The notes under the pieces are model-generated. The model made no database searches and had not been told where the DNA came from. It was given only the letters and a program-made list of their open reading frames with translations. Position numbers and translations under genes: made by a program. This document shows positions 2,644 through 28,399 of a stretch of 64,000 nucleotides of DNA, piece by piece. The stretch's first letter is position 1. Every line of letters begins with the position of its first letter. Origin of the DNA: Thermoplasmata archaeon (GTDB lineage: Archaea > Thermoplasmatota > Thermoplasmata > Lutacidiplasmatales > UBA184); assembly GCA_027365105.1 (NCBI GenBank), contig DAHXNZ010000008.1, forward strand, positions 129 to 64,128, written 5' to 3'.

Positions 2644-3384
2644 CTACTCCTCTTCGACTCGGGGCGCGAGGAGGAACTCCCCCGTGCCCTTCTGCTGGGC
2701 GACCGGAAACTCGATCTTCAGGGGATACTCATTGCCGACGTGGAGCGTGACCTCGTCGGCCGAGCCGATCGACTTCATCATCGCCGAGAAGAAGTCGAGC
2801 GGGTACATGCTCTTGACCCGGTCCTTCGCCTCGATGCGGACGAGGCCATCCGCCGTCGTGAGACGCATGTCCATCCGGTCGGTCTCGCTCTCGGAATGGA
2901 GGGTAAAGGAGTCCGAGTCCAGTTCGAGGATCACGTTATCGGCGATGCTCTCGCTCCCCCGGATCCCCTGGCGGAGCTCCTCCATCCGGACCACCGCCTT
3001 CGCCGGAGGATTGACCGTGGGAACCTTGGGGTCGGTCAGGCTGGCCGGGTCGACGAGCGACATGGCCCGGACCACCTTGCCCACGCGGGTGACCAGCGGG
3101 TTCTTGCCGCCGTCGTACTGGAGCGAGATCGAGTCGCCCGGCTTGGAGAGGCGGAGCACATCCTTGAACCGCTCCATATCCACGCCGATCTCGGTCGGCT
3201 CGCCGGTGAACTCCTCGAAGGCGGAGGGACTCAACCGGAGGAGGAGCATGGCCACATGGGAGGGGTCGACGGCCTTGACCTCGAGGCCGTCTTTGGAGAT
3301 GGCAAATTTGGCTTCGGAGACGAGGGTGGAAACCGCTTCGACCACCTCGCGCAGGACCTCCATTCGGATTCGAGCCTTGAACAT
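2644..3384 (-). CDS. pcn: DNA polymerase sliding clamp PCNA
   Basis: Archaeal PCNA-like sequence beginning MFKARI; the six-frame ORF extends upstream but the MFKA start (3384) sits ~30 nt below the TATA-like CTAAATAG (3417-3424). ~247 aa. Confidence 0.8.
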   Translation of the reverse strand: MFKARIRMEVLREVVEAVSTLVSEAKFAISKDGLEVKAVDPSHVAMLLLRLSPSAFEEFTGEPTEIGVDMERFKDVLRLSKPGDSISLQYDGGKNPLVTRVGKVVRAMSLVDPASLTDPKVPTVNPPAKAVVRMEELRQGIRGSESIADNVILELDSDSFTLHSESETDRMDMRLTTADGLVRIEAKDRVKSMYPLDFFSAMMKSIGSADEVTLHVGNEYPLKIEFPVAQQKGTGEFLLAPRVEEE

Positions 3385-3544
3385 TGGGAAACCCGGCCGA
3401 CCCACGCAGCCCCGCTCTAAATAGGTTGCCTTGACCGAGGAGAGCGCCCCCTCGGGAACGCCGGCGGCCGACGGCCATGGGCGGCCCCCCGCAAGCGACT
3501 TCCCCCGGCAGTGCTGACGGAGTCCCGCCGGGGCTGAGGCGACC

Positions 3545-4294
3545 ATGCCGACCGAACTTGCCTACCTGTCGGATTTCGACTCGGCTTACCTCCGACAATT
3601 CCGTGCCCGGGTGGTCGGGCGGCCCCCGGGGGCGATCGTCCTCGATCGGACCTACTTCTACCCGACGGGAGGCGGCCAGCCGTCCGACCTCGGTTGGCTC
3701 CGACGCCCGACCGGCGAAGCACTCCCGATCCGCGAGGTCTACCGCCAGGGCGGGGTCGTCTTCCACCGGTACCGGGGCTCTCCCCAGGTCGCCGGGGGAT
3801 TCGTGCCGGGCACCGAGGTCGAAGGGAGCATCGACTGGGACCGGCGGTACGCCCACATGCGCCTCCACACCGGCCAGCACCTGTTGAGTGGGCTCATCTT
3901 TGCCCGGACCGGTCGGAGGACCGTGCGCGCACGGCTGGAGTCGCCGAACGCGACGATCGAACTGGACGCCCCACTCTCCCCCTCCGGGGCCCCCGCGCTC
4001 CAAGATGAGTTCGATCGGATCGCGCGGGAGAATCGCCCCCTCCGGATCCGGCACCTCCCCCGGTCGGAGTGGGATCGCGACCGGACCGGCCGGGCCAGTG
4101 GGATCGAGCTCGCGGCCGCCGTGGACCCGGTCCGAATCATCGAGATCGACGGACTCGATTCGTGCCCCTGCGGTGGCACCCACGTCCGCTCGGTGGCCGA
4201 GGTCGCGCCTGCCGCCGTGGCGGCGCGCTCGGAGACCGGCGACCGATGGGGCCTCAGCCTTTCGGCGCGGCCGCCGACCACTCGGCCCGGGTGA
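3545..4294 (+). CDS. alaX: alanyl-tRNA editing protein AlaX-like (misacylated tRNA-Ala deacylase)
   Basis: HxxxH zinc motif (HTGQHLL) and CPCGGTHV motif of the AlaRS editing / second-additional domain; GAGG Shine-Dalgarno-like element 8 nt upstream of the ATG. Confidence 0.75.
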   Translation: MPTELAYLSDFDSAYLRQFRARVVGRPPGAIVLDRTYFYPTGGGQPSDLGWLRRPTGEALPIREVYRQGGVVFHRYRGSPQVAGGFVPGTEVEGSIDWDRRYAHMRLHTGQHLLSGLIFARTGRRTVRARLESPNATIELDAPLSPSGAPALQDEFDRIARENRPLRIRHLPRSEWDRDRTGRASGIELAAAVDPVRIIEIDGLDSCPCGGTHVRSVAEVAPAAVAARSETGDRWGLSLSARPPTTRPG

Positions 4295-7034: not shown

Positions 7035-7820
7035 ATGACCAGCCCCTCCACAGTAGACCAGACCCCGGTGAAAGCGGGCGAACTGGTTTCGCTGGACTAC
7101 GAGATCTGGGCCGAAGGCGGAGGCCGAACCAACCTCATCGACACGACCCGCGAGGAGGTCGCCCAGCAGGCGGGGGCCGAGCGAGGGGACGGTACCCACT
7201 TTGCCCCGCGACCCCATCTGATCGGGGGCGAGTTCTTCCCCTCAGGGATCGAGAAGGGCCTGGAAGGGCTTGTGCCCGGCCAGGAGGTCACCAAGACCTT
7301 TGCTCCCGCGGAAGCGTTCGGCGAACGGGATCCCAAGCTCATCGAGCTTTTCGGCATGCACGAGATCCAGCGGCTGCCCGAGATGCGCCGGGAGGACGCG
7401 CGGCTTGACATCGGCACGGTGCTGACGATCCGGGGACGCCGCGGCCGCGTGGTCAGCCTGACCGCGGCCCGAGTGCGGGTCGACTTCAATCCCCCGTACG
7501 CCGGCCGGACCGTCCGCGGTACGTTCAAGGTGCTGTCCCGCATCGACAGCGCGGCCGACCAGGCCCGGGCCATGATCGAGCTCCACTACGGCCACGGAGC
7601 CGAGTTCCGGGTCGAGATGGAAGGATCGATCCTCACGGTCCACCTTCCGGACCGGGCCAAGTTCGACCTTGCCTGGGTGGCGACGAAGCCTCGCCTGATC
7701 GAGGCGCTCCGCCGGCAGGTTCACCCCAAGGAGATCCGGATCGTCGAGGAGTTTGTAACCCCGGAACCCCCGGCGACTCCCCCCGTCGAGACCCCTCCGG
7801 CCAGCCCGCCTCCGACCTGA
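7035..7820 (+). CDS. FKBP-type peptidyl-prolyl cis-trans isomerase (archaeal long-type, SlyD-like) with a Pro/Thr-rich tail
   Basis: FKBP fold signatures (GELVSLDYEIWAEGGG, insert-in-flap region). TATA-like AAAACCTTAAAC at 7001-7012 lies ~30 nt upstream of the ATG. Confidence 0.8.
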   Translation: MTSPSTVDQTPVKAGELVSLDYEIWAEGGGRTNLIDTTREEVAQQAGAERGDGTHFAPRPHLIGGEFFPSGIEKGLEGLVPGQEVTKTFAPAEAFGERDPKLIELFGMHEIQRLPEMRREDARLDIGTVLTIRGRRGRVVSLTAARVRVDFNPPYAGRTVRGTFKVLSRIDSAADQARAMIELHYGHGAEFRVEMEGSILTVHLPDRAKFDLAWVATKPRLIEALRRQVHPKEIRIVEEFVTPEPPATPPVETPPASPPPT

Positions 7821-7886
7821 GGCCCCCGCCTCTGCGGACCGGAGTACCAACCGAGGGCTCTTGAACCCGGCCTCCGTCGCCGACGT

Positions 7887-8036
7887 ATGAGTTGGTGGAC
7901 CGAGAACTACACCGCGGAACAGCGTCGCTTCATCCTCGGGGCTTTCGTTGTCGGCTTCGTGGCGGCCGGCCTCATCATCTATCTGGGTCTTTCGGGCATT
8001 CTCCTGGGTGGAATGCCTGGGCCGGTGACGCCGTGA
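7887..8036 (+). CDS. small hydrophobic protein (49 aa, single predicted TM helix)
   Basis: ATG-initiated ORF shorter than the ORF-track cutoff. Hydrophobic core FILGAFVVGFVAAGLIIYLGLSGILLGG; moderately GC3-rich. Confidence 0.3.
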   Translation: MSWWTENYTAEQRRFILGAFVVGFVAAGLIIYLGLSGILLGGMPGPVTP

Positions 8037-8057
8037 GCCGTCGGCCGTCGAAACCGT

Positions 8058-8747
8058 TTAGTGACCGCGCGAGGTGACCGGATCGTGACGCTGGCCTCCG
8101 ACCGAGACGACTGGCGCATCTATGCCGGCTGGATCGCCGGGGCCGTCGTGATCGTGGCGGTCCTCCTGGTCGGGGCCGGATTCTGGATCTACTTCCACGG
8201 CTGACGGCAGGCTCTGGGGAACGACGTACAGGTGCAGCCGGTGGACCGGGTCCACCGCGCGGGCAGTCCATCCAGGGATCGGGTGGAAGTGGCTGACGAT
8301 CCGGAGTCCCGGCGGTAGGCCGGATCCCCACTCGGCCGCAAGCCGTTCCATCGCCCCGGGCCAGAGGAACGCGACGACCACCGTGGCGTCGTTCAGCCGA
8401 ACTCCGAACAGGTTGGCTCGCCGGATCTCGATCGCCTCCGGGCGGGGCGAGAACCGCCGCCGGCACCGCAGGATGGCGACACGCAGCGGCTCGATCTCGA
8501 CGCCCACGACCCTTCGGGCGCCGGCCCGCGCGGCCGCGAAGACCACCGAACCCGTACCGGCACCGAGGTCATAGACGACCTCGCCCGGGCCGATGCCCGC
8601 GAGGGCCAACAAGGCTTCGACCACCCTCCGGCTCGACGGCGCGTAGCCGGCCCCCCAGACGAACGAGAACAGGACGAAGTAGGCCAATAGGAGCGCCCCG
8701 ACGAGAGCTCCCCCCCAGAGGAGCAGGGCTCCCGTCCCGAGCGTCAT
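8058..8747 (-). CDS. membrane-anchored class I SAM-dependent methyltransferase
   Basis: N-terminal TM helix, then SAM-binding motif I (VVYDLGAGTGSVVFAAA). The stop overlaps the meaB start by 4 nt. The last ~50 codons have atypically low GC3. Confidence 0.6.
   Translation of the reverse strand: MTLGTGALLLWGGALVGALLLAYFVLFSFVWGAGYAPSSRRVVEALLALAGIGPGEVVYDLGAGTGSVVFAAARAGARRVVGVEIEPLRVAILRCRRRFSPRPEAIEIRRANLFGVRLNDATVVVAFLWPGAMERLAAEWGSGLPPGLRIVSHFHPIPGWTARAVDPVHRLHLYVVPQSLPSAVEVDPESGPDQEDRHDHDGPGDPAGIDAPVVSVGGQRHDPVTSRGH
8086..8204 (+). CDS. small hydrophobic protein (39 aa, single predicted TM helix)
   Basis: GTG-initiated ORF with strongly GC3-rich codons (VTLASDRDDWRIYAGWIAGAVVIVAVLLVGAGFWIYFHG). 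It overlaps antisense with the low-GC3 C-terminal tail of the methyltransferase ORF. Confidence 0.25.
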
Positions 8748-9721
8748 GTCGTCTTCGATCGGGGCCGGGCCGGGCCCTTCAGCAGGCGGCGGGCGGCCGA
8801 CGGGGGATCCAGGGTACCCCCGACCACGCGGTCGAGCAACCCGCGCACCTCGGGATCACTCTGGGCCCGGGGCAGCAGATCCTGTTCGACCCGGCGCTTC
8901 ATCAGGTCGAGGATCTCCTGGAGGGCCTGGCGACGGCGCAGGGGCCCCCGGAGTTCCTTCTCATCGAGGAACCGCTCGTGCCGCTCGATCGAGTTCCAGA
9001 GTTCCTCGATCCCGGCGGGGAGCGTGGTGGAGGTGGCCGTCACCAACGGCCTCCAGCCGTCCCGGGGCGTGCCGAATGCGACCAGTTCGACCAGGTCGCG
9101 CCGGGCTTGGTCGGCGCCCGGCAGGTCGGACTTGTTGACGCAGAAGACATCGGCAATCTCGAACAGACCGGCCTTGAGGGTCTGGACCTCGTCGCCCAGA
9201 TGGGGGATCAGCACCACCACGCTCGTGGACGCCACGTCCCGGATGTCGACGTCGACCTGGCCGCTGCCGACCGTCTCGACCAGGACGACATCGAACCCCG
9301 CAGCATCGAGGAGGCGGACCGTCCGGCGGGTGGCCAGGGCGATGCCTCCGGAGTAGCCCCGGCTGGCCATCGACCGGATGAACACCCCGGCGTCGCGATC
9401 CCCCCGTTCCATCCGGATCCGATCCCCGAGGACCGAGCCCCCCGAGAAGGGGCTGGAGGGGTCGACCGCGACCACCGCGACGCTCCGATGGATCGCCCGG
9501 AGGTGGGCGATGAGGCGGCTCACGAGGGAGGACTTCCCGACCCCCAACGGGCCGGTGATCCCGACCACGGTCGCCCGTCCGGTCCCCCCGTAGAGCGACC
9601 GCTCGACGGGGGCAAAGGTCGGATCGTCCTGCTCGATGCGGGAGATCGACTGCGCGAGGGTCCGCAGCTCCCGCCGACGGATCGCCCGCGCGGTCGTCGC
9701 TGTCGAATCGGCCCGGCTCAT
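8744..9721 (-). CDS. meaB: methylmalonyl-CoA mutase-associated GTPase MeaB/ArgK
   Basis: P-loop [13 protein letters not shown], Mg-binding region [12 protein letters not shown] and NKSD specificity motif. Start overlaps the upstream B12-binding subunit gene by 4 nt. Confidence 0.85.
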
Positions 9722-14346: not shown

Positions 14347-15747
14347 ATGCCGTCGCGCCCAGCGAAGGGGGACCCGGACGAGCCGGAACGGCTCCGGGTC
14401 GACCGACTGCCCACCTCCGGACGACGGAAGGGAGCCGCGTCGGCCCGACGGCCGATCCAGGGCTGGTCCGAGAAGGCTCCGTCGGCTCCCGCCGCCCGGC
14501 CGTCCCGGCGGTCGGGCCGAACGCCGACGGGGCGATCCAAGAAGAGGGTCTACTTCCGGCTCCGGGACTCCCTCCTCTTCGAGCCTTTGGTGGCGCTCGC
14601 CCTCATCGTGATCCTGGTGGCCGGGGCCTATGCGTACACCCACAATTGGCCCCCCGTCTACATTGTCGAGTCGAACAGCATGCAGCACGGGCCGAACGAT
14701 GTGCTGGGCATCATCAACACCGGGGACATCGTGTTCGCCCAGCAGATCCCGACCGCCTCGATCATCACCTATGTCGACGCCCTGCATCCGGGAACCGCGC
14801 ACTCCGGCTACACGACCTACGGTGAGCTCGGAGATGTCGTGCTGTACCATCCGAACGGGGGCGACGGGACCCCGATCGTGCACCGTGCCCTGCTCTATCT
14901 CGAGTGGAACGCGACCCGCCAGTCGTTTTCGGCGCCCACCTTGGCCGGCCTCCCGTGCGGCTCCGCCCAAGGGGCGGTGTACAGCTACGGGGCCCCGGGT
15001 AGTCCAGACGACTGCCAGTGGACCAACCTGACCGGGACCCTCCACCTCTACCACATCGGCTGGAAATCGGCCGGCGTGACCCTGAGCCTGAGCTCGTCAA
15101 CCGTGGGAACCCACTCGGGCTTCCTGACGATGGGCGACGACAACTGCGACACCTCGTCGGGCCGGTGCTACAGTTGCACCTCCACGGTGCCCTGCAGCGG
15201 AGAGCCGGACCAAGGGCCGATCGGCCTGAGCAGCCTCGTCCGCCCGGCCTGGGTGATCGGAGTTGCCCGGGGGATGATCCCGTGGTTCGGAGCCGTCAAG
15301 CTCCTGCTCACCGGAACCTCCTCGGAGGTGCCGCCCCAGAGTTTTGAGTACATGGGCTTCACTCTGATCGGCGTCGTCCTGGGGGCGGTGGCGATCCACC
15401 TCGGGGTCAAGGCCCTCGGCACCTCCGAGGGCCGCATCGGCTCCCGAGGAACGCCCGATCCGTCGGACGAAGAGACCGAGGAGGAGGACGACCCCCGCCC
15501 CATGAGGCGCCGATCGGCGCGGCGGGCGGACGATGAGGATTTCGAAGACGCAGAGGAGGAGGAGGAAGAACCGGAATCTCCCCGGAGGGTCACCCGGGTG
15601 GCCCGGGCCGCGGTCCGTCCCCCCCGCCCCTCCACCCAGAGATTGAAACCCCCGGGGCCGCAGGCCCGGCCTCCACCCCGACGGGGGCGACCCCGGCCGA
15701 CGGTTCATCGCCGGCATCCGACTTCGGACGAGGACAGCGAGCTGTAG
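14347..15747 (+). CDS. signal peptidase I (S26/Sec11-like) with a large Cys-rich insertion and a charged C-terminal tail
   Basis: Box B (VESNSMQHGP), box D (IVHRALLY, His-type as in archaea/eukarya) and box E (MGDDNCD, GDN-like), with N- and C-terminal TM helices. Insert has 8 Cys; tail is poly-E then Arg/Pro-rich. Confidence 0.6.
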   Translation: MPSRPAKGDPDEPERLRVDRLPTSGRRKGAASARRPIQGWSEKAPSAPAARPSRRSGRTPTGRSKKRVYFRLRDSLLFEPLVALALIVILVAGAYAYTHNWPPVYIVESNSMQHGPNDVLGIINTGDIVFAQQIPTASIITYVDALHPGTAHSGYTTYGELGDVVLYHPNGGDGTPIVHRALLYLEWNATRQSFSAPTLAGLPCGSAQGAVYSYGAPGSPDDCQWTNLTGTLHLYHIGWKSAGVTLSLSSSTVGTHSGFLTMGDDNCDTSSGRCYSCTSTVPCSGEPDQGPIGLSSLVRPAWVIGVARGMIPWFGAVKLLLTGTSSEVPPQSFEYMGFTLIGVVLGAVAIHLGVKALGTSEGRIGSRGTPDPSDEETEEEDDPRPMRRRSARRADDEDFEDAEEEEEEPESPRRVTRVARAAVRPPRPSTQRLKPPGPQARPPPRRGRPRPTVHRRHPTSDEDSEL

Positions 15748-15870
15748 GGTCGAACGGCCGGCCGGCGGGGCCCCGGGCGGCCCGCATCGTCCGAAGCCGG
15801 CCCGCGTCGGCGCGTGGGAACGGGGGGCAACCTTTTTGCCATCGACCGACGCTGGCGCTCGGAGATCGCT

Positions 15871-16749
15871 GTGTACATCATCGGGGGATCGGCCTCCACC
15901 TCCCTGGCCGAACGGGTGTCGCGAGAACTGGACAGCTGCCCCTTCTCCATCCCCTTCAGCAAGCGATTTCCGGACGGCGAGATGTATCTCCGGGTGGGAG
16001 GCAAGCTCGAGGGCGAGGATGTCGTCATCGTCCAGTCCACCCGCAACGACGCCGAAATCGTCGAGCTCCTGCTGCTGAGCGACGCGGCTCGCGAATCGAG
16101 TGCCCGGCGGGTGATCGTCGTGGTGCCCTACTTCGGCTATGCCCGTCAGGACCGGCGGTTTTACCCCGGAGAGGCGGTCAGCGCCCGCGCCCTGGCCCGG
16201 CACATCGAACTCGAGGCCGACGGGGTCATTACCGTCGACCTCCACTCGGCTCGTACCCTGGAGTCGTTCCACAAACCGGTCTACGAGGCCAGCGGCATCC
16301 CGGCGATCGCGCGGCTCCTCGCCCAACGACCGGTCGATCTTCTCGTCTCCCCCGACAAGGGGGGCGTGGACCGGGTCCGGCGGATGGCCGAGATCCTGAA
16401 GAAGCCCTGGATCGCCCTCGAGAAGCGTCGCATCGATAGCGAGCATGTCGAGCTCCGGGTACCCGAAGGTGGCCCCCAGCCCGTCCCCGGGGCCCATCTG
16501 GTCATTGTCGACGACGTCATCTCCACCGGGGGCACGATTGTGGCGGCGGCCCAGCTCCTGGCGCGCGCCGGTGCCGGCTCGGTGGCCGCCGCCTGCACGC
16601 ATGGCCTCTTCCTGAAGGACGCCTTCGAACGGATCAAGGCGGTGACCGACGGCATCTACTCCACCGACACCCTGGTGAACCCGGCGGAGAAGGCCTCGGT
16701 CGCACCGGACATCGCCAAGATCCTCACGGAACGGTTCGGGCCGGCGTAG
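15871..16749 (+). CDS. prs: ribose-phosphate pyrophosphokinase (PRPP synthetase)
   Basis: PRPP-binding loop (VIVDDVISTGGT) and Mg/ribose-5-P region (DLHS). GTG start at 15871 preceded by GGAG; the ORF-track start at 15814 adds a non-prs-like extension. Confidence 0.85.
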   Translation: MYIIGGSASTSLAERVSRELDSCPFSIPFSKRFPDGEMYLRVGGKLEGEDVVIVQSTRNDAEIVELLLLSDAARESSARRVIVVVPYFGYARQDRRFYPGEAVSARALARHIELEADGVITVDLHSARTLESFHKPVYEASGIPAIARLLAQRPVDLLVSPDKGGVDRVRRMAEILKKPWIALEKRRIDSEHVELRVPEGGPQPVPGAHLVIVDDVISTGGTIVAAAQLLARAGAGSVAAACTHGLFLKDAFERIKAVTDGIYSTDTLVNPAEKASVAPDIAKILTERFGPA

Positions 16750-16764
16750 GATCCGGCCGGCACC

Positions 16765-17712
16765 ATGGAGATCCAGCCGACCGACCGGATCCCCGAAGCC
16801 GATCTCGTCGAACGGCTGTACGGGATGTGGAAGGCGCTCCGGTCGCGGGGCGAGTCCCCCCAGGGGGACTGGGTCGAGGGTATCGCGCGGGAGCTGCACC
16901 AAGGCCTCCGGACTGGCCGGCTCGCTCGACGGGGTTCCACCTCGATCCTGGGCTTTCTCTCGATCGCGGACGGGGAGGCGTTCGGCCACCTGCACTGCGA
17001 CGGGCCGTCCGACCCGGAGCTCGGCGCGCGGGTCCTGGCCGATCTGATCGACGGACTCCCCCCCGAGGTGGCGGCCCTCGTGGTCGGGTTCACGGGCCTC
17101 CCTTCGTCCGATGAGACCGCCCTGATCCGAGAGGTGGACCGGCCCGGAGGCCGGACCATCCCGCGCCGGGCCCTCCTCCGGCCCATCGGATCGGGAGACG
17201 AGATCCCCTTGACTCCGCCGGTGGCCAGCGCGCGCCGGCTTCCGGTCCGCGAGGTCCCGCTCTCCGCCCTCGCCCAGTTGGACCAGCGGGCGTATGCGGG
17301 GACGGTGGACGCCCTCCTGACCGGGCCGGAACCCCGGCATCACGAGCGGATTCTGGATGAGCTTCTCCACCACCGGCTGGGCCGGTTTCTGGACGAGGCC
17401 TCCCTGGCCCTGGTCGAGGTCGATACCGGTGCCCTCGTCGGTCTGGCGATGACGGCCGAGCTTTCGGCCCATACCGCCGTCCTCCTCGATGTTGGCGTCG
17501 ACCCGATGGCCCGCGGAAAGGGGTACGGGCGGTTTATCCTCCGGTGGACCTTCCGGGCGCTTCGTGCCCTGGGCTACGAGGAGATCCGGCTCTGGGTCAC
17601 CGACGAGAACCTTCCGGCCCGCCGGCTCTACGAGCAACTCGGCTTTCGGACCGCCGGCCAGGCCACGCTCTACCGCTGGGGCCGGGACCCCGGACAGCCG
17701 CAGTCCGGCTGA
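16765..17712 (+). CDS. GNAT family acetyltransferase (C-terminal GNAT domain)
   Basis: Acetyl-CoA-binding motif (VGVDPMARGKGYGRFIL) and C-terminal LWVTDENLPARRLYEQLGF. Confidence 0.6.
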   Translation: MEIQPTDRIPEADLVERLYGMWKALRSRGESPQGDWVEGIARELHQGLRTGRLARRGSTSILGFLSIADGEAFGHLHCDGPSDPELGARVLADLIDGLPPEVAALVVGFTGLPSSDETALIREVDRPGGRTIPRRALLRPIGSGDEIPLTPPVASARRLPVREVPLSALAQLDQRAYAGTVDALLTGPEPRHHERILDELLHHRLGRFLDEASLALVEVDTGALVGLAMTAELSAHTAVLLDVGVDPMARGKGYGRFILRWTFRALRALGYEEIRLWVTDENLPARRLYEQLGFRTAGQATLYRWGRDPGQPQSG

Positions 17713-19136
17713 TACGGGCAGAGGGGAACCCGCCAGGCGGGGCAGGCGGGAAGCTCCGCGGGCCTCCGTTCGGTTAAGGCCCGGTCCAGTCGTGCGGTCC
17801 GCTCCCGGGCGATCCGGGAGAACACGGTCGGGGAGCCCACCGCGACCTCGAACGCCTGAACCCGCTCGAGGCTCCCTTCCCGGGGCCCGATGCCCACGAG
17901 GAGCCAGGCCGACCGGTCTCCCAGGAAGGCGCACCGGAGTCCGGCCTCGAGGAAGTACTGCGGCGCGGCTTCGACGGCCGCCGTCGACTCGTCCGGGAGC
18001 GGCCGGGTTCGGGTCTTCAGGACCAGGGGGTGCTCCCGGAACAGCCCGCCACCGGAGCCGGTTTCGGACGCGTCGGCGACCCGGGACTCCCCGAGAGGGC
18101 CGGATTCGGTCAGGCTCCGGAGCTCGAGCCACGATTCCGAGATCCCCCGGGGCGCCGCCTCGGCGACCGGACGCTCGCGTCGGAAGTACGCCCACCGGGG
18201 ATAGATGAGGTCCGAGATGTTCCACGGCTCCTCCATCGCCGGCGGGGGCAGCCCCCGGCATCGCGACTCGATGCCGGCCGCTTGGGCCGGAACCTCGCCC
18301 ACGACGCGGATCGAGTCGGCGAGCGGCTCGGGCTCGACCGGCTCGTCGCCCCGGCAGCCACACCGGCCGGCCGCTTGCCAGATGCACCCCCGGTCCCTCC
18401 ATCGGCACCGCGGCAGGCCGGACGGGTCCCCGGAACGGAGGGACGACCGGAGCCGTTCGGCCCGCTTCGCCACGGCCCCCCGGATCGTTCCGGGATCGTC
18501 GATCGCCAGTTCCAGGACCCGCACCTCCTCGACCCGATGGGCCTGGGTTCGCAGCAAGGCCAAGGTCGACCGTCGTGCATCCAGGAGGCCCGCATAGATG
18601 GCCACCTGCTCCAAGTGGTCCGGATGCGCCACGATCGCACCGGAGGCTCGAGCGAAGGGGACGGCGCCGGACTTGATCTCCACCGGGCCGTCCGACCAGC
18701 CATCCAGGCGTCCGGCCACTCCGCCCCGGAAGAAGTTCACTTCGATCCGGGAGACCGGCGCGAGGAGCGGCGCGGCGACCCGGTGGAGGGCGCGGCCCCA
18801 CTGGATCGCCGTCCCCCGGGCCGGATCCTGGGGCTCGGGAAGCCGCCGACGATAGAACGCCGGACGTGGGTCGACCAGATCCGTGGCCGCGACCGGCGGC
18901 CAAGGAACGAGGCCCGGCCGTCGTCCCTCGAGCTCCTGCTCCAGCTGGTTTCGCCGGACCGCGGTGACGGTGGGCTTCCACCCGTACCGCTCGGCCCACG
19001 GACCGTCGTCCACAGTCCCGGTAGGGCGAGCCGCGCGTAAATGCTCCCCCCTCAAGCCAAGGGGCTTTACCCTCGTGTGGCCTTCGGGGAAGGTGGCCGA
19101 CCGACAGCGGGGTCCCCTGATCGTCGGCACCGGCAT
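17670..19136 (-). CDS. PD-(D/E)XK nuclease-like protein (Cas4/RecB-like core, 4-Cys cluster) with an unknown C-terminal domain carrying a second Cys cluster
   Basis: Nuclease-like motifs in order GRLDG...VEIKSG (D...ExK) and LEQVAIYAGL (QxxxY), then CRWRDRGCIWQAAGRCGC. The C-terminus ends CPAWRVPLCPYQPDCGC. An alternative leaderless GTG start at 19013 lies ~25 nt below the TATA-like GCATTTAC. Confidence 0.45.
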   Translation of the reverse strand: MPVPTIRGPRCRSATFPEGHTRVKPLGLRGEHLRAARPTGTVDDGPWAERYGWKPTVTAVRRNQLEQELEGRRPGLVPWPPVAATDLVDPRPAFYRRRLPEPQDPARGTAIQWGRALHRVAAPLLAPVSRIEVNFFRGGVAGRLDGWSDGPVEIKSGAVPFARASGAIVAHPDHLEQVAIYAGLLDARRSTLALLRTQAHRVEEVRVLELAIDDPGTIRGAVAKRAERLRSSLRSGDPSGLPRCRWRDRGCIWQAAGRCGCRGDEPVEPEPLADSIRVVGEVPAQAAGIESRCRGLPPPAMEEPWNISDLIYPRWAYFRRERPVAEAAPRGISESWLELRSLTESGPLGESRVADASETGSGGGLFREHPLVLKTRTRPLPDESTAAVEAAPQYFLEAGLRCAFLGDRSAWLLVGIGPREGSLERVQAFEVAVGSPTVFSRIARERTARLDRALTERRPAELPACPAWRVPLCPYQPDCGCPGSRPQR

Positions 19137-20652
19137 TGCCGGACTCTACATCGCCATCCGGTCTCGGGAACTCGGGCTCAAGCCGCTCCTGGTCACCAAA
19201 GCCCGCCTCGAGGAGTCGAATACCCGGTATGCTCAGGGCGGAATCGCTGCGGCCATCGGCCGTGACGACTCCGTGCAGCGGCATCTCCGCGACACCGTCC
19301 GCGCGGGCGCCGGCCTCGTGAACCGGCCGGCGGCTCGAGTCCTGGCCTTCGAGGCCCCGGCCCGGATTGCCGACCTGGTCCGGCTGGGGGTCCCGTTTGA
19401 CACGATCGACGGCCAGATCCAGCTGGGCCGAGAGGCGGCCCACAGCCGGGCCCGGATCCTCCACGCGGGGGGCGATGCCACCGGCTACTCCATTGAAGAG
19501 AGCCTCCGTCATCGGGTCCTCGAGATGGGCATCGAGGTCCGCGAACGGACGATCCTCCGGGAGATCCGGCCCGGGAGGTCCGGCCTACCGGAGGCGATCG
19601 TGTCGGCGGCGGATGGGACCGCCGTCGAGACGCTGGACCCCCGGCCGCTCGTGCTGGCGACCGGGGGGGCCGGGAGCCTGTACCGGCAGAGCACCAACCC
19701 GTCGGTCACCACCGGCGATGGGGTGGCGGTGGCTTTCCGGGCGGGGGCGATCGTCTCGGACCTGGAGTTCTTCCAATTCCACCCGACGGTCTTCTTCCGG
19801 CCGGGAGCCCCCCGCTTCCTCATCACCGAAGCGCTTCGAGGCGAAGGCGCCCTCCTGCGGAACGTCAAGGGAGACCGGTTCCTTCCTTCGATCCATCCGG
19901 ACGGAGAACTGGCCCCGCGGGATGTGGTGAGCCGGGCCATCGCCGCCGAGATCGATCGGACCGGACACCCGTGCGTCTACCTCGACGCGACCGAGATTCC
20001 CCGGGATCGGTTGTACACCCGGTTTCCCTCGGTGTGCCGGTTTCTCGCCACCTTTGGCCTCGATCCGGCCCGAGACCGGATCCCGGTCGCCCCCGTCGCC
20101 CACTACATGATTGGAGGGGTCACGACCGACACCGACGGCCGGACCAGCCTCGTCGGCGTGTATGCGGGAGGCGAGGTCGCTTCGACCGGAGTGCACGGAG
20201 CGAACCGGCTCGGGAGCAACTCCCTGCTCGAGGGACTGGTCTTCGGCGAGCGGATCGCACGGGACCTGCTCCATCCATCGGCCGGGGGGACCCGCCCTCG
20301 GTTTCCCTCAACGCCGATCGCCTGGCCGCCGGGAGCGGGGGGCCCCGAGGACCCGGCCCGGATCGATGAGCTCCGCAACGACCTCTGGCGGAACGTGGGC
20401 ATCGCCCGCAGCCGGACCGGCCTCAGCTCGGCCGTCCGGGCCTTCGATCGGATCCGCGCCACGGTCGAGCCAGCGGAGGATGGGCGCCCGCCCGGCCCGG
20501 GCGCCAACGCCGCCCTCACCGCCTCGCTGATCGCCCAAGCCGCCCTGGCTCGAACCGAGAGCCGGGGTTCGCACTACCGGTCGGACTTCCCGGGACCGGA
20601 TCCGCGATGGGCTCGCCGCCTCTACTGGGTCCGCGCTGGATCCTCGGCCTGA
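19075..20652 (+). CDS. nadB: L-aspartate oxidase (FAD flavoprotein; NadB / succinate dehydrogenase flavoprotein family)
   Basis: FAD-binding GxGxxG (VGTGIAGL), RYAQGGIAAA, HYMIGG and C-terminal GANRLGSNSLLEGLVFG. Start uncertain: GTG 19075 (used; leaderless relative to TATA 19037-19044), or GTG 19093. Confidence 0.8.
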   Translation: MWPSGKVADRQRGPLIVGTGIAGLYIAIRSRELGLKPLLVTKARLEESNTRYAQGGIAAAIGRDDSVQRHLRDTVRAGAGLVNRPAARVLAFEAPARIADLVRLGVPFDTIDGQIQLGREAAHSRARILHAGGDATGYSIEESLRHRVLEMGIEVRERTILREIRPGRSGLPEAIVSAADGTAVETLDPRPLVLATGGAGSLYRQSTNPSVTTGDGVAVAFRAGAIVSDLEFFQFHPTVFFRPGAPRFLITEALRGEGALLRNVKGDRFLPSIHPDGELAPRDVVSRAIAAEIDRTGHPCVYLDATEIPRDRLYTRFPSVCRFLATFGLDPARDRIPVAPVAHYMIGGVTTDTDGRTSLVGVYAGGEVASTGVHGANRLGSNSLLEGLVFGERIARDLLHPSAGGTRPRFPSTPIAWPPGAGGPEDPARIDELRNDLWRNVGIARSRTGLSSAVRAFDRIRATVEPAEDGRPPGPGANAALTASLIAQAALARTESRGSHYRSDFPGPDPRWARRLYWVRAGSSA

Positions 20653-21337
20653 ACTCCCCTCCGACGCCCCGGTTCGTTCCTCCCTGAGGATGGGGGGGCG
20701 GTCCGCGTCCCGTCGACCGCGGTAGTGCCCGAGATCCTGCGACCGGGTTACCCTCGAAGAGCCCGGTCGGGAACCCTCGCCGTCCTGGGTCGGCCGGCCG
20801 AACCGCACGTCGTTGGGTCCCGCGGCCGCCCGTCCACAGTGTCGAGCGCCGTCGACCGGGTGGGTCCGCGGGCTGCCCATGCCCGCCCGAGGTCCAGTGA
20901 CCGACGGGGTGCCGCTTTCGACGTCGATCGAGACGCGGCCACGGCTTCCCTTCCTGAGCTCTACGTCCGGCGGCGGGAACAAAGGCGTGGTCGACCCCCG
21001 ACCGGAGCTCCGCCGCAACGACCGCGTGGCCGCCACCACCGAGATCTGCCGCGGTCCCCGGTTGGAGATCCCCGACGGCTCACCGACCAGGAGGCCGCCC
21101 GCGGCGGATCCAGGCCGCTCCCCCCTCTTTTGGCCCTCCGATCACCTGGGCCGCCCCCGGTCGGGGGCCGGCTCCCGCGCCGCTTCGGAGGTCACCGGCC
21201 GGGCAGTCCGCGGTCGTGCCCCTGGGGGTTCGGGAGTCTCCGGCTGCCTCCCTGAGCTGAAGGGCGCAAGGCCGACCGGGGCGGAGCCTCCGAACGAACC
21301 CGGCAACGATTATCCCTCCCTGGAGCCTCCCGACGGT

Positions 21338-22492
21338 GTGTCCCACGACCTCACCCTGGAGGAACAGGATCTTGCCTCGGCCGCCCGCCGCTTCGTGCAG
21401 CGCGAGGTCGCTCCGCTGGCCGAACGGATGGATCGGGACGACTACTTCCCACGCGAACTGTTCCGGAAGATGGGGGAGGAAGGGTTCCTCGGGCCCACCG
21501 TCCCGGAGCAGTACGGCGGCTTGGGCTTGTCGTACCGGGCCCAGGCGGTCATCCTGGAGGAGATCGCTCGGGAAAGCCCGGCGCTGGCCCTGAGCGTCGG
21601 GGCCCATTCGAATCTGGCGGTGGACAACCTGGCCCGGAACGGCACCGACGATCAGCGGGCGGAGTTCCTGCCCCCCCTCGTCCGGGGAGAGAGGATTGCG
21701 GCGCTCGCCCTCACCGAGCCGAATGCCGGCTCGGACGCGGTTTCGTTGAGCACCCGGGCCGAGCGGAACGGGGATCACTATATTCTGAACGGTTCCAAGC
21801 AGTTCATCACCAACGGGCCGGTGGCGGACACCCTGCTGGTCTACGCCAAGACCCGCCCCGGCGACGGAGCCCACGGGATCAGCGTCCTGCTGATCTCCCG
21901 GGAGATGGAAGGATTCACGGTCTCCCGGAGCCTCGACAAGATGGGGATGCGCGGCTCCCCGACCGGGGAGCTCGCCTTCCGGAATGTTCGGGTCCCGCTC
22001 GACCGGAGGGTCGGCGAGGAGAACAGGGGCGTGGGCATCCTGATGGGAGGCCTCAACGTCGAGCGGGCGGTCCTCGCGGCGATTCCGGTCGGCATCCTCG
22101 GGGCCTGCCTCGATCGGTCGATCCAGTACGCGCGGGAGCGGGAGCAGTTCGGGGAGAAGATCGGCCGGTTCGAGCTGATCCAGGAGAAGATCGCGAACCT
22201 CTACATGGATCTCGAAGCTTCGCGTCGTCTGCTTTATGGGGCCCTCGAATGCGTGGCGACCGACCCCCGGCGCCTCCGGGACAGCTCGGCCGCGCTGACC
22301 TTCGCCTCCGAAGCCTCGACTCGGGGCGCGCTCCAGGCGATCCAGATCCACGGAGGCTACGGGTACATGCGGGACCTCCCGCTCGAACGGTTGGCCCGGG
22401 ACGCCAAGCTCCTCGAGATCGGCGCCGGGACGAGCGAGATCCGCCGGCTCATCATCGCCCGTGAACTGCTGGGGCCCGGTTTCGGCCGCTGA
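21338..22492 (+). CDS. acyl-CoA dehydrogenase
   Basis: ACAD N-terminus ([15 protein letters not shown]), FAD/substrate motifs (GSKQFITNG, catalytic region [28 protein letters not shown]). GTG start chosen because the upstream ORF extension is low-complexity and not GC3-biased. Confidence 0.85.
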
Positions 22493-22588
22493 ACCCGGAC
22501 CCCCGGAGAGACCGGCGGCCGAGGGACCGGAGGACCCGAGGCACGGGACGACCCGCCCTGATTTGTACCGCGGACGGGTGGGCAGCCC

Positions 22589-23356
22589 ATGACCCAGCTC
22601 TCCCCGAGCCATCCCCGCTACCGGAGCCTCCGGGTCCGGGCGGGGCTCGCGGCGGCGCTGGGGAAGGGCCTCATCGTCCCCGAGGGGCTCATCGCGCAGG
22701 GGCGAGGCGAGACGTTCGACTACTTCCTCGGGGAACGGACGATTCCGAGTGCTCGCCGGGCCGAACGGGTCGCCGCCGCGTGGATCCGCGCGGCCCGGCA
22801 CCCCGTGCTGAGCGTCAATGGGAACGTGGCCGCCCTCGCCGCCGCCGAGATTGCCCGGCTGGTACGAGCGTACCCGCCCTTGGGGGTGGAGATCAATCTC
22901 TTCCACCGGTCTCCGGCCCGGGTCCGGGTCGTGGCCCGAACCCTCCGCTCGGCGGGGATCCGACGTCCCTACGGGCTCCGACCCACCGGTCGGATCGCCG
23001 GGCTCGACTCGGACCGGGCGAGGGTCGACCGCCGGGGGATCGGTTCGGCCGATCTCTGCCTGATCCCGCTCGAAGACGGGGACCGGGCCGAGGCCCTCCG
23101 GGGCGCCGGACGTCGGATCGTCTCGATCGATCTCAACCCGCTCTCCCGGACGAGCCGGGCCGCCCACCTGCCCATCGTCGACGAACTCACCCGGGCCCTC
23201 ACGGAGATCGCTCGGGCCCTCGAGGGTCCGGCTCGACCCTCCCCCCGAGGACCGTCCGCCCGGGCCCTCCTCTCCGACGCGCAGGCCACGATGGCCCGGA
23301 ACCTGCTCAGGGTCCCGCGACCGGTTCCTCGGGGGACGCCTCGACGGCCCCGGTGA
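22589..23356 (+). CDS. 4-phosphopantoate--beta-alanine ligase (archaeal phosphopantothenate synthetase, COG1701-like)
   Basis: N-terminal HPRY motif and GRGExFDYxxGE region resembling the archaeal PPS family. Recognised from memory, not searched. Confidence 0.55.
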   Translation: MTQLSPSHPRYRSLRVRAGLAAALGKGLIVPEGLIAQGRGETFDYFLGERTIPSARRAERVAAAWIRAARHPVLSVNGNVAALAAAEIARLVRAYPPLGVEINLFHRSPARVRVVARTLRSAGIRRPYGLRPTGRIAGLDSDRARVDRRGIGSADLCLIPLEDGDRAEALRGAGRRIVSIDLNPLSRTSRAAHLPIVDELTRALTEIARALEGPARPSPRGPSARALLSDAQATMARNLLRVPRPVPRGTPRRPR

Positions 23357-25042: not shown

Positions 25043-25974
25043 CCGGCGGCCGCCTCCTCCCGGTCGTCTTCGATCCGTCGACCGACGACCTCGAGGAAGA
25101 TGTCCTCGAGGTCGACCGGCCCGAACGCGACCCGCGCCCCGCGTTGCAGGGCCTCCTGGGCGAGGGCCCGGGCGCTGCCTTCGCTGGCAAAGACCAGAAA
25201 GCCGTGGTCGACCGCCCGGGCGCTGCCGAACGACCGAAGTTCCTCGATCGTAAACGAACCTTCGACGGTGACCCGGTACGGAGACTGTACGCGCCCCCGA
25301 AGGTCCTGGGGGGTGCCTTCGAGGACCAGACGTCCCCGTTCAATCAGGGCGAGCCGGCTGGACAGCGTCTCAGCCTCGTCCAGGTAATGGGTCGTGAGGA
25401 GCGTCGTGCGGCCCTCGCGCGTGGCCTTCCGGATCGCCCCCCAGACCTCCCGGCGGGCAATCGGATCGAGCCCGGTCGTCGGCTCGTCGAGGAAGATCAG
25501 ATCGGCCTCGGTGCCCAGCACCATCGCCACCATGACCCGCCGGCGCTGTCCGCCGGAGAGCCGGGAGATCGACCGGGAGGCGAGCTCGGTCAGCGAGAGC
25601 TCGGCCAGGACGTCCTGAGTCCGGGACCGGGCGAGACGACGGCTCATTCCCCGGAGGCTCAGGTTGAGGCGGATCGCCTCCTCGACGGTCAGGAAGTACA
25701 GAGGGCGGGACTCCTGAGGCACGCAGGCGATCCGCTCCCGCACCCGGCCGGTCTCGGTCATCACATCGTGACCCAGGATCTCGATCCGGCCGTCGGTCGG
25801 TTCGAGCTGGGTCGCCGCGATCCGGATGAAGGTCGTCTTGCCGGCCCCGTTGCGGCCGATGAGCCCGTAGACCCGGCCCGGCGGGACCGTGAGGGTGAGA
25901 TCGTCCAGCGCCCGGGCGCCGGCCGGGGCGTGGGGGTAGACCCGGGTGAGGTGCGTCGCCCGGATGGCGTCCAC
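25039..25974 (-). CDS. ABC transporter ATP-binding protein (ABC-2 exporter partner)
   Basis: Walker A GRNGAGKTT, signature LSGGQRRRV, Walker B LIFLDEPTTGLD, H-loop. Confidence 0.9.
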   Translation of the reverse strand: MDAIRATHLTRVYPHAPAGARALDDLTLTVPPGRVYGLIGRNGAGKTTFIRIAATQLEPTDGRIEILGHDVMTETGRVRERIACVPQESRPLYFLTVEEAIRLNLSLRGMSRRLARSRTQDVLAELSLTELASRSISRLSGGQRRRVMVAMVLGTEADLIFLDEPTTGLDPIARREVWGAIRKATREGRTTLLTTHYLDEAETLSSRLALIERGRLVLEGTPQDLRGRVQSPYRVTVEGSFTIEELRSFGSARAVDHGFLVFASEGSARALAQEALQRGARVAFGPVDLEDIFLEVVGRRIEDDREEAAAG

Positions 25975-26010
25975 CGAACCCTCCTGCCCGACCGACCCGA
26001 TCCGACCCGA

Positions 26011-27078
26011 TCAGCTCAGGACCTCGGAGAGGCGGCCCGCATCGCGGGCCCGGTGGATCTCCTGGGAGATCCTTCGGCCCATCGAGAGCCCCGGCTCGCG
26101 GAGGTCCGAGTACGGGCTCCCCGAGATGAACAGGCTCGTACCTGCCACGATCCGGGTCGAGATCTCGAAGACCTTGAACTGGAGCTCCTCCGTCATGATC
26201 CCCTCGACGCAGAACGGACCCACCATGCCGCCAAAGAGCTCGATCGAGCGCTCAATGATGCGGGCCCCGATGTCGAAGATCTGCGGGAGCAACGACTCCC
26301 GGAGGATCACCGGGACGTTGCCGGTCACCACGAAGGTGGGCTCGAGTCCGGCCCGGTGCAGTTCCTCCTGGGCCCCGAGCTTGTACAGTTCGTCGATGTT
26401 CGCCTCGTCCCTTCGATCCATCCCGAGCAGTTCGAGCGAGCCGGAGCCGACCCGATACCCGTCCTTCGACAGCGGGGAGTAGAAGAAATGGACATAATAC
26501 CGGGTCCCGAGGACATACTCCTGGATGACGTGAGGGCCGGTCGGATGGAACCGCTCCAGCGCGGCGCGGTTCTTCGCCAGGTAGAATCCCTTTCCGCCCT
26601 TCGCTCCGTAATACTTGACGATCACCGGCCCATCGACTTCGTCCGGGGTTTCGTACCGCTTCGGCATCCGCACGCCGGCCGACTCGAGCCAGGTCCGCTC
26701 CTTGCGCCGATCCGACTCCCACTCGATGACCGCCCGGTTCCCGAAGACCGGCACGTCGAGTCGGGTGAACGCTTCCGGCCCGAGATACTCCACGAAGGAG
26801 CCGTGAGGAACGAGGATGACCCCTTCTTGGCGGAGCTGGTCCGAGTACTCCGGGAGGGCCTTGATGACCGGAACCTCCAGGAACCGGTCGGGCCGGGCCA
26901 ACGGGAAGGCTTCGTAGAACCGGGGCGCGGGGGCCGTCGTGATCCCCAAGGTCCGGAACCCTTCCCGTCGGGCCCCATGAAAGATCTGCAGGGAGGAGTG
27001 GGAGCAGAGGGTCGCAACGGTCGGCGCCTGATCTTCGAGATGGGTGATACGGCTGGGCGGTGCGAGAGAGGTCCCCAT
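26011..27078 (-). CDS. purP: 5-formaminoimidazole-4-carboxamide ribonucleotide (FAICAR) synthetase PurP
   Basis: Archaeal PurP (ATP-grasp, DUF1246/DUF1297) pattern: SHSSLQIF...VIVKYYGAKGGKGFY...FCVEGI. TATA-like TTTATTTTT sits ~27 nt upstream on the minus strand (27098-27112). Confidence 0.85.
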   Translation of the reverse strand: MGTSLAPPSRITHLEDQAPTVATLCSHSSLQIFHGARREGFRTLGITTAPAPRFYEAFPLARPDRFLEVPVIKALPEYSDQLRQEGVILVPHGSFVEYLGPEAFTRLDVPVFGNRAVIEWESDRRKERTWLESAGVRMPKRYETPDEVDGPVIVKYYGAKGGKGFYLAKNRAALERFHPTGPHVIQEYVLGTRYYVHFFYSPLSKDGYRVGSGSLELLGMDRRDEANIDELYKLGAQEELHRAGLEPTFVVTGNVPVILRESLLPQIFDIGARIIERSIELFGGMVGPFCVEGIMTEELQFKVFEISTRIVAGTSLFISGSPYSDLREPGLSMGRRISQEIHRARDAGRLSEVLS

Positions 27079-27217
27079 AGGAACCTACACCGAGGTTCAA
27101 AAATAAACTTTGCCCTCACGGTCCCGGCGGCCGGGCGAAGGACGGCGGCCCTCCGCCGCCGCGGGCTCCGTTCCCCCCCGGGGCGGGACGCGGTACGGAG
27201 GCACGGCCGGGGCCGGC

Positions 27218-28399
27218 CTACTCAAGTTCCCAGTACCACCGGACCTTGCGCGATCCGCTCTCCGCGATCCTCCGACGGACTTCGGCCTCGACGGTGGGGT
27301 CGCGGAGGAGTCGCCGGATCTCCTCCGAGGAACCCGACGGGGCTCGGCGGGAAAGGTCGAACGCCTCGAGGATCGGGCGCACCAGTTCGGGGGGATAGCT
27401 CCAGGCCTCCTCCCGCTTGCGGACCGCCGCCACCCGGTGGCCCTCCACGCGGTGTACCCCCAGCCGTTCCGCGGCCTGGTGGAGCTCCTGGGCCGTGCGC
27501 GAGAGCTCCTCGGAAAGCCGCTCCTCTTCCGCGCGCAGCGACGCGAACCGGTCCACCAGCCCTTCCAGCCGAGGCCGGTCGGCGGTCGGTACCGCCCGGA
27601 ACTCGGGGCACCGGCTTCGGAAGTCGCATCGGGAGCAGTGCCGCCCGGGGGTCGGTTCAAAGGCATCGCCCCGAATGCCGTCGCTGACCTCCCCGACCCG
27701 GATCGACAGCTCGTCGAGCGCCGACCGGGGCCGGGGCGGGGTCGTGAGCGGAGTCAACGAGCGCAGATGGAAGAGCGAAAGGGCCTCCACAGGGTCGGAG
27801 AAATTCTTCTCGACCAGGACCTGGTACAGGCTGAGCTGGTCGGAGGTCGAGGCGTCCCGGGCCGTCAGGTCCCGGGTCGTCTTGTAGTCCAGGACCACCA
27901 GACCCCCCCCTTCGGTCCGGTCGATGCGGTCGATGAAGCCGTGGATCGGGACCCCGTCCCATCGGGCCGTCAGGTGTTCTTCGATGGCGATCGGGCGAGG
28001 GGGATCCCGTTCGAGGGTCTCTCGATACCCGAGAAGGATCTCCCGGCCGAGCGCCCGGTAGCGGGCTTCCTCCTCCTTACTGGTGTACCCGTCCGCGGTC
28101 CAGTGCCGGTCGTATGCCGCAAGCAGTTCCGCTTCGCCCCACGGGGACCGGGGAGGATCGACGGAGCCCCGGGGGAACTCGTCGAGGGTCCGCTGGTGGG
28201 CGCCGTCGGACGAGCGTCGGCCGGCGGGGACGACGAACGGTTGGAGCAGCTCTTCCAGGACCGAGTGGACCGTACGACCGAAGCTGAAGTAGCCTCGAGG
28301 CGCCTCGGGGAGCCGATCGACGTACAGGAACTTCCAGCGGAGCGGACACTCCTCGTACGCCCGGATGGAGGAGTAGCTCAGCTGGGCGATGGCCACCAT
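27218..28399 (-). CDS. Cas4/RecB-like PD-(D/E)XK exonuclease with an Fe-S cluster (DUF83-like), stand-alone
   Basis: N-terminal YSSIRAYEECPLRWKF motif (first Cys), GFIDRID...VVLDYKT (D, ExK), QLSLYQVL (QxxxY) and C-terminal CSRCDFRSRCPE (three Cys). Confidence 0.75.
   Translation of the reverse strand: MVAIAQLSYSSIRAYEECPLRWKFLYVDRLPEAPRGYFSFGRTVHSVLEELLQPFVVPAGRRSSDGAHQRTLDEFPRGSVDPPRSPWGEAELLAAYDRHWTADGYTSKEEEARYRALGREILLGYRETLERDPPRPIAIEEHLTARWDGVPIHGFIDRIDRTEGGGLVVLDYKTTRDLTARDASTSDQLSLYQVLVEKNFSDPVEALSLFHLRSLTPLTTPPRPRSALDELSIRVGEVSDGIRGDAFEPTPGRHCSRCDFRSRCPEFRAVPTADRPRLEGLVDRFASLRAEEERLSEELSRTAQELHQAAERLGVHRVEGHRVAAVRKREEAWSYPPELVRPILEAFDLSRRAPSGSSEEIRRLLRDPTVEAEVRRRIAESGSRKVRWYWELE

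Follow-up and report, generated by a model that had tools for sequence, protein, structure and literature searches.

What is the second half of an archaeal Cas4-like protein found with no CRISPR array in its surroundings, and what would the whole protein do for its host? The question is raised by a 64,000-nucleotide stretch of DNA from a Thermoplasmata archaeon (GenBank assembly GCA_027365105.1, contig DAHXNZ010000008.1, positions 129 to 64,128 of the forward strand), here called the window, in which a preliminary description made from the letters of the DNA had taken the open reading frame (ORF) 17670-19136(-) for an atypical Cas4-like nuclease fused to an unknown C-terminal domain. The N-terminal half is indeed Cas4-like by fold and motifs, and the C-terminal half is an internal duplicate of it. 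The protein is probably, in a judgement held with fair rather than high confidence, a tandem Cas4/RecB-type module in which an active unit 1 and a dead unit 2 would form a pseudo-dimer with metal clusters, serving chromosomal DNA metabolism.

Two copies of one module in a single chain

The motifs quoted at the outset (GRLDG...VEIKSG, LEQVAIYAG, CRWRDRGCIWQAAGRCGC and the C-terminal CPAWRVPLCPYQPDCGC) are all present in the translation of 17670-19136(-). The parts of the gene and of its product are given below; conservation counts, here and throughout, were taken over 142 full-length family members, archaeal and bacterial-type.

17670-19013, minus strand: nuclease gene, 447 codons plus a stop codon (17670-17672), with a GTG start at 19013
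18909-19013, minus strand: residues 1-35, ahead of unit 1; a short strand and a helix, with E27, L28 and R31 conserved in the alignment
18336-18908, minus strand: unit 1 (residues 36-226), putatively active PD-(D/E)XK domain of Cas4/RecB type, assigned from its fold, weak profile matches and invariant catalytic residues
18672-18704, minus strand: catalytic motifs II-III, D104 ... E112-x-K114 (GRLDGWSDGPVEIK), in 142/142 members
18594-18608, minus strand: QxxxY motif, Q136-Y140, in 142/142 members, aligned with the Q..Y of Cas4 4r5q and 4ic1
18354-18407, minus strand: Cys cluster 1, C203-x6-C210-x7-C218-x-C220, cysteines in 141-142/142 members and spacing in 122/142
17673-18335, minus strand: linker and unit 2 (residues 227-447; unit 2 about 263-447), a duplicate predicted to be dead, assigned from an hhalign comparison, a separate AlphaFold2 (AF2) model and lost catalytic acids
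17694-17744, minus strand: Cys cluster 2, C424-x7-C432-x5-C438-x-C440, with C424, C432 and C438 in 140/142 members and a fourth cysteine that moves

The C-terminal half looked unknown because direct searches of Pfam, NCBIfam, PHROGs and PDB sequences with it returned nothing meaningful; a profile match to MHC chains (E 0.025) was spurious. The early statement that it has no recognizable motifs therefore holds for direct profile searches, but not beyond them, since the half is recognizable as a copy of the N-terminal one. When residues 36-226 and 262-447 were compared by hhalign on a 16-sequence alignment, they matched over 178 columns with a probability of 98.9% and an E of 3.2e-17. ATDLVDPRPAFYRRR and ISDLIYPRWAYFRRER are common to both halves by eye, and an LP-x-C-x-x-W...C...C-x-C stretch closes each of them. 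The AF2 model repeats the same order of elements, i.e., three helices, three strands, a helix, two strands, a long helix and the Cys stretch, and the linker between the units (residues 227-262) repeats the strand and helix that precede unit 1 (strand 16-20 and helix 22-30 vs. strand 235-240 and helix 242-253). Modelled separately with AF2 (predicted local distance difference test, pLDDT, 76), the C-terminal half matches Cas4 4ic1 best among PDB entries (E 2.3e-4, probability 1.00), followed by lambda exonuclease, MGME1 and LHK-Exo, interleaved with weak matches to Rai1. Neither half is significantly similar in profile comparison to the canonical Cas4/AddB-type paralogue of the same genome at 27218-28399(-), with E values of 0.11 and 0.22. 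A fusion of two different nuclease genes was rejected, as the halves are far nearer each other than either is to that paralogue. The supposed unknown domain is thus a degenerate duplicate of the nuclease module that precedes it.

The full-length AF2 model, built with 16 homologues (pLDDT 86; predicted template-modelling score, pTM, 0.87), has Cas4 SSO0001 (4ic1) as its best PDB match in Foldseek (E 3.6e-5, TM score on the target 0.52-0.54), and lambda exonuclease, a DinG entry and RecE come next. Structure prediction, which had been proposed as a check, gives 4ic1 as the best match for the full-length model and for that of the C-terminal half. In a viral structure library, all of the significant matches (21/21) are single-domain proteins of Cas4, lambda-exonuclease or YqaJ type that cover about one domain, with a TM score on the query (TMq) of at most 0.32. 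Profiles give fainter signals. The NCBIfam cas4 model TIGR00372 aligns with ORF residues 90-206 at 13.8 bits (E 0.039; curated cut-off 65), PADLOC returns a weak Cas4 match (E 0.009) and a profile of the family finds the PDB sequences of Cas4 4r5q and 4ic1 at E 0.08-0.11, with GxxxH, D...ExK and QxxxY aligned. A Pfam scan of the protein gave no match at E <= 1, while its relatives score 16-22 bits with PDDEXK_1 (PF12705; gathering threshold 22), two listed relatives having precomputed PF12705 hits. The first half, as predicted, is a Cas4-like PD-(D/E)XK domain with a non-canonical four-cysteine cluster, by fold and motifs and not by curated profile thresholds. Its active site appears complete (H77, D104, E112, K114, Q136, Y140), and D104, E112, K114, Q136 and Y140 are each kept in every member. 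From this invariant active site we infer that unit 1 is a metal-dependent nuclease.

The same structural matches bear on the substrate. Both models give weak Foldseek matches to Rai1/DXO (E 0.013-1, probability up to 0.85 for the C-terminal half), as would suit an RNA-processing enzyme, whether a 5′-to-3′ exoribonuclease or a 5′-end-modifying PD-(D/E)XK enzyme like Rai1/DXO. Such an enzyme is nevertheless improbable here: significance is reached only by the structural matches to DNA nucleases (Cas4, lambda exonuclease, MGME1 and RecE), which also rank best, and the QxxxY motif together with a Cys-cluster module are hallmarks of the RecB/Cas4 branch of DNA nucleases.

Unit 2 has followed another course. 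The position equivalent to E112 is always hydrophobic (L, I or V) and that equivalent to D104 falls in a variable, often gapped stretch, while the counterpart of K114 (K/R333) is K or R in 132/142 members. P272/R273 (135/142) and P329 (140/142) exceed their unit 1 counterparts in conservation, and mean pairwise identity is 0.32 in unit 1 and 0.25 in unit 2. Judging from these patterns, unit 2 is in all likelihood catalytically dead family-wide, yet under selection and not decaying. Contacts with phosphate or DNA are suggested by the arginine retained in its N-terminal helix and by the Lys/Arg that stands where the catalytic lysine once was.

Taken together, the 447-amino-acid chain would be made of two tandem copies of one module, each closed by its own four-cysteine metal-binding stretch. 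Unit 1 would cut; unit 2, arisen by internal duplication and deprived of the metal-binding Asp and Glu, would most likely act as a built-in non-catalytic partner, the resulting single-chain pseudo-dimer holding or positioning DNA for one active site. Characterized Cas4, solo-Cas4 and lambda exonuclease proteins act as homo-oligomers. The SSO0001 crystal contains many chains (PDB entry), and Solo-Cas4 of M. mazei runs at ~318 kDa (PMC12501428).

Both halves of the protein resemble Cas4 and solo-Cas4 (COG1468, TIGR00372; 4ic1 SSO0001, 4r5q Pcal_0546) in their modelled fold, and the likeness extends to the V-T-D-L-V-x-P-R-R motif of the N-terminal helix, to the GxxxH, D...ExK and QxxxY motifs shared with unit 1 and to a Cys cluster at the C-terminal end. 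However, a Cas4 protein has ~200 amino acids and one unit, whereas the protein described here has two, the second apparently dead; given its score and its Cys pattern, it would be at best a highly derived offshoot of Cas4 proper. The nuclease domain of AddB and RecB (PDDEXK_1, PF12705) likewise has its C-terminal Cys cluster behind a PD-(D/E)XK core, but is fused to or partnered with a superfamily 1 (SF1) helicase; no helicase domain is present in the window protein or among the neighboring genes examined, and the protein has neither a Pfam match nor significant similarity to its AddB-type paralogue. The 5′-3′ exonucleases lambda exonuclease, RecE, YqaJ and MGME1 are second-tier structural matches of both halves, yet lack Cys clusters and have no detectable sequence similarity to the protein; lambda exonuclease and RecE are moreover assembled from identical subunits, unlike the fused pair. 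Pairing of an active module with a second, inactivated one of the same fold is known from the RecC nuclease-like domain of RecBCD, the AddB helicase domain, ERCC1-XPF and the Sau3AI pseudo-dimer. In these systems, one active site is accompanied by a degenerate copy that selection has kept as a structural or DNA-binding partner, which is a functional analogy and not homology; here, in contrast, a single polypeptide holds two Cas4-like copies, and each of them has its own Cys cluster.

Cysteine clusters with a probably relocated ligand

In Cas4 and AddB, one cysteine of the N-terminal helix (DLVRCPRR in SSO0001) joins a C-terminal CxxCx5C, whereas unit 1 carries a contiguous C-x6-C-x7-C-x-C. An alignment of the ligands, suggested earlier as a check, bears out the conservation of the Cys clusters (140-142/142) but not a canonical Cas4 arrangement: the position of the N-terminal cysteine is occupied by N, D, A, E or S, and this ligand is absent from both units. 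Instead, an extra, fourth cysteine lies 6-7 residues upstream of the remaining cluster cysteines, and all four are found within a short C-terminal stretch in each half. The canonical CxxCx5C occurs only in unit 2 and only in 14/142 members, which there have C-x4-C-x2-C-x5-C, i.e., the canonical motif plus the upstream cysteine; most others have a trailing C-x-C. In unit 2 of the window protein, C432-P-Y-x3-C438 corresponds to the second and third cysteines of the canonical motif and aligns with C-D-F-R-S-R-C of the paralogue. We read this pattern as the relocation of a ligand within a cluster homologous to the Fe-S (iron-sulfur) cluster of Cas4, in which a cysteine immediately preceding the C-terminal ones would have taken over from the ligand of the N-terminal helix. 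Each cluster is probably of the Fe-S type, to judge by homology; solo-Cas4 proteins are described as metal-dependent DNA nucleases with [4Fe-4S] clusters (PMC5704561; PMC12501428).

The near invariance of the eight cysteines in two clusters might also be expected of a non-enzymatic protein, DNA-binding or redox-sensing, for which the nuclease fold would merely scaffold the metal. The cluster of solo-Cas4/LinCas4 is reported to be dispensable for catalysis (PMC12501428; PMC8610317), which makes a separate function of the cluster conceivable. Such a protein is nonetheless very improbable, as the invariance of the five catalytic-motif residues of unit 1 would make little sense in a protein that does not catalyze, and unit 2 exemplifies the loss of catalysis in the same fold.

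A further, semi-conserved cysteine is seen in the family alignment right after the position of the QxxxY tyrosine in both units. In unit 1, it forms a YC pair in the bacterial-type clade of P0181 and in several Thermoplasmata members and is replaced by A in the window protein; in unit 2, it is C361 (112/142). It may serve as a fifth ligand or as a disulfide partner, or simply be a small buried residue.

The gene and its chromosomal setting

The window has a GC content of ~70%, and long ORFs are present in all frames. Codon-position GC in the ORF 17670-19136(-) is 0.74/0.59/0.86 for positions 1/2/3, a pattern shared with prs, GNAT and nadB, whereas an overlapping ORF of 1471 amino acids at 15097-19512(-), which runs across the nuclease gene and three of its neighbors, has 0.85/0.59/0.69, which marks it as a spurious shadow frame in a genome of 70% GC. 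The nuclease ORF is a real coding gene because of its third-position GC (GC3) of 0.86 and its full-length homologues, and the GC-frame analysis put forward in the preliminary description thus speaks for coding. The opposite view, that of a non-coding antisense or shadow artefact, could point to the many long spurious ORFs that overlap the region, including the 1471-amino-acid one on the same strand. It is refuted, with practically no probability left to it, by the GC3 pattern, by hundreds of full-length homologues with motif-specific conservation and by a confident structure model. Similar shadow ORFs lie at 25144-27687(+) and 21080-23167(-).

The ATG at 19136, initially taken as the start, is 123 nucleotides too far upstream and was rejected in favor of the GTG at 19013. 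The database protein P0001 (447 amino acids, 100% identical) begins at this GTG, as does the conservation among aligned homologues; the ATG falls within nadB, whose Rossmann motif starts from ~19117 on the opposite strand. A promoter-like element also precedes the GTG, and at its other end the gene overlaps its convergent neighbor:

19037-19042, minus strand: TATA-like hexamer ATTTAC, 23 nucleotides upstream of GTG 19013
17670-17712, shared by both strands: convergent 3′ overlap of 43 nucleotides between the nuclease gene and the GNAT gene 16765-17712(+)

An A/T-containing element occurs at an equal distance from the start in the orthologous loci L001, L003, L004 and L006. The 79-bp divergent intergenic region (19014-19092) has two mirror-image TATA-like hexamers, the other being CTTTAC at 19065-19070, 22 nucleotides upstream of the probable nadB start (GTG 19093), and also an GGTAAAGCCCCTTGG element conserved in L004 and L006. 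Hexamers located 22-23 nucleotides from GTG starts suggest that the nuclease gene and nadB are both transcribed as leaderless mRNAs.

The 3′ overlap measures 43-52 nucleotides at every locus checked (the window, L001 9314-9362, L003 9350-9401 and L004 9302-9344); therefore, the last ~14 codons of both proteins are dual-coded, and among them are those of the last cysteines of the nuclease and of its ...RSQR tail. This tail is clade-specific, and its conservation may reflect antisense constraint from the ...YRW... C-terminus of GNAT and not a functional motif.

The nuclease gene is divergent from nadB, as first described. The order nadB (divergent), nuclease, GNAT (convergent), prs is shared by 24/24 Thermoplasmata loci, across which identity drops to ~32% for the nuclease, with 63-88% for nadB and 70-90% for prs. 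A CRISPR-associated Cas4 gene lies next to cas1/cas2 or an array, unlike the nuclease gene with its fixed housekeeping neighbors. Examination of homologue contexts, another of the proposed checks, revealed this housekeeping block and no defence island in the Thermoplasmata loci; in the loci examined, no defence, cas, methylase or mobile-element genes neighbor the nuclease. The window carries no CRISPR-like repeat array, and a non-exhaustive scan of ~36 of its ORFs against Pfam found no cas domain, in line with the first account of the region. Searches of plasmid and phage collections by tblastn gave no matches to the nuclease. The window is core chromosome, with genes for CysRS, thiolase, PCNA, eIF2-gamma, PurP, TFB, ribosomal protein S2, methylmalonyl-CoA mutase, PheRS, SRP54, an Opp transporter, thermopsin and DNA ligase.

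Several other genes of the region deserve mention. The GNAT protein has an N-terminal part of ~190 amino acids without recognized domain and, at 39-76% identity, evolves as fast as the nuclease. Beyond prs usually stands a gene for a 466-amino-acid protein (14347-15747(+) in the window) with 50-86% identity in most Thermoplasmata loci and no Pfam or NCBIfam family. The window also holds the genes of PCNA (2644-3546(-)) and of an ATP-dependent DNA ligase (51393-53390(+)), both distant from the nuclease gene, and reading by eye revealed no PCNA-interaction (PIP-box-like) motif at either nuclease terminus. The second Cas4-like nuclease announced at 27218-28399(-) is there: it is a canonical PD-(D/E)XK enzyme of Cas4/AddB type (Pfam PDDEXK_1, E 7e-40; phrog_69 exonuclease, E 2e-27) with an N-terminal C18 and the motifs IDRID...LDYK, QLSLYQ and CSRCDFRSRC, and its C-terminal extension of ~120 amino acids has only a faint Mu Gam/Gp157-like TOTE match (E 0.19). 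It lies between purP and the TFB gene, which is not a defence context. GC content falls to 0.62-0.65 at 40000-50000 and 56000-60000, regions that hold an Opp-type ABC transporter (41607-46826), a 1045-amino-acid protein with a weak SBP_bac_5 match (47740-50877(-)) and a 1336-amino-acid thermopsin-domain protein (56534-60544(-)). First-position GC (GC1) is just 0.53-0.56 in these genes, which may encode secreted or surface proteins of biased composition or be acquired DNA.

Role, distribution and meaning of the family

A fused active-plus-dead pair would be an asymmetric unit with a single active site, a build suited to asymmetric substrates such as DNA ends, overhangs or junctions, and its role is probably the processing of DNA ends or single-stranded DNA in repair, recombination or replication. 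This role is probably chromosomal, not CRISPR adaptation or defence, because the gene is stand-alone, vertically inherited and set in a housekeeping neighborhood. Solo-Cas4 genes are common and vertically inherited (PMC5704561), and their location outside CRISPR-cas loci and mobile elements is likewise shared with the present gene.

Several observations weigh against a Cas4-type Fe-S nuclease of chromosomal DNA metabolism. All direct matches to Cas4 and PDDEXK_1 profiles are below curated thresholds. Zinc or no metal at all is possible in the clusters, because the spacing C-x6-C-x7-C-x-C fits no characterized Fe-S nuclease. The neighborhood yields no functional clue: in Thermoplasmata the syntenic genes are metabolic, and seven distant contexts have nothing in common. 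Finally, in L029, a 2.5-Mb contig of the bacterial-type clade of P0181, a member of the family lies directly upstream of the gene for a 672-amino-acid PLDc_2/RE_NgoFVII-like protein (7393-9411). This gene is the only nuclease or defence-like neighbor among the contexts examined, and could hint at defence in some lineages.

The adjacency just described is also one of the points that a stand-alone anti-virus or anti-plasmid nuclease could claim for itself, with unit 2 sensing or binding foreign DNA and unit 1 degrading it. Defence systems often include PD-(D/E)XK nucleases, Cas4-like ones among them, and a distant member, P0104, matches the Druantia DruK profile (E 5e-7). We consider defence hardly probable all the same, in view of the fixed position of the gene in a housekeeping block in all of the Thermoplasmata loci, of neighbors without defence, cas, methylase or mobile-element genes, of the lack of plasmid or phage homologues and of a PADLOC result limited to the weak Cas4 match. 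Of the two roles initially suggested, defence thus loses ground, and repair or maintenance would be the better guess.

The family reaches far beyond the window. An exhaustive profile search retrieved at least 630 cluster representatives at 50% identity, 318 of them at E <= 1e-10; nearly all have 430-500 amino acids and are matched end to end. These distant relatives come in addition to 16 close homologues, and the names borne by the nearest homologues point to a Thermoplasmata archaeon as the source of the window. A genome scan with a close pattern found 19 GTDB species representatives, all of them Thermoplasmata metagenome-assembled genomes (MAGs) except for one labelled only “bacterium.” A distant clade of 548 clusters is found on contigs of up to 4.9 Mb, with the MAG labels Gemmatimonadales, Armatimonadetes and Chloroflexi and with neighbors of bacterial type (outer-membrane beta-barrel protein, peptide deformylase, GerE-type response regulator), and retains the two-unit architecture and the motifs. 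Among the members seen, the sole name besides “hypothetical protein” is “PD-(D/E)XK nuclease family protein,” on P0004; the window nuclease stays below threshold with every Pfam and NCBIfam model. A literature search for tandem or pseudo-dimeric Cas4 found no description, an absence that is not proof.

A bolder proposal would see here a distinct class of single-chain asymmetric nucleases, widespread in Thermoplasmata and on contigs of bacterial type with MAG labels from several phyla, in which the dead unit is a dedicated strand- or end-recognition module, comparable in function to the dead domains of RecC or AddB, and the clusters have a role of their own. We hold it to be rather doubtful; if true, the class would represent a new stand-alone DNA-end-processing activity, and its two relocated clusters might serve, e.g., in redox sensing or in the sensing of DNA charge transfer between two [4Fe-4S] centers.

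Returning to the tandem Cas4/RecB-type module, it opens no new kind of system and settles no open question: this is a duplicated, highly derived Cas4-like family, an unusual build of a familiar enzyme. It would provide a natural example of an oligomerizing nuclease fixed as a fused asymmetric pair, and suggests that a short C-terminal stretch can by itself supply the four ligands of a rebuilt “iron staple” of Cas4/AddB kind, a point relevant to the purpose of the cluster. A large and hitherto unnamed family thereby gains a testable annotation, that of a tandem Cas4-like module with one active and one dead unit.

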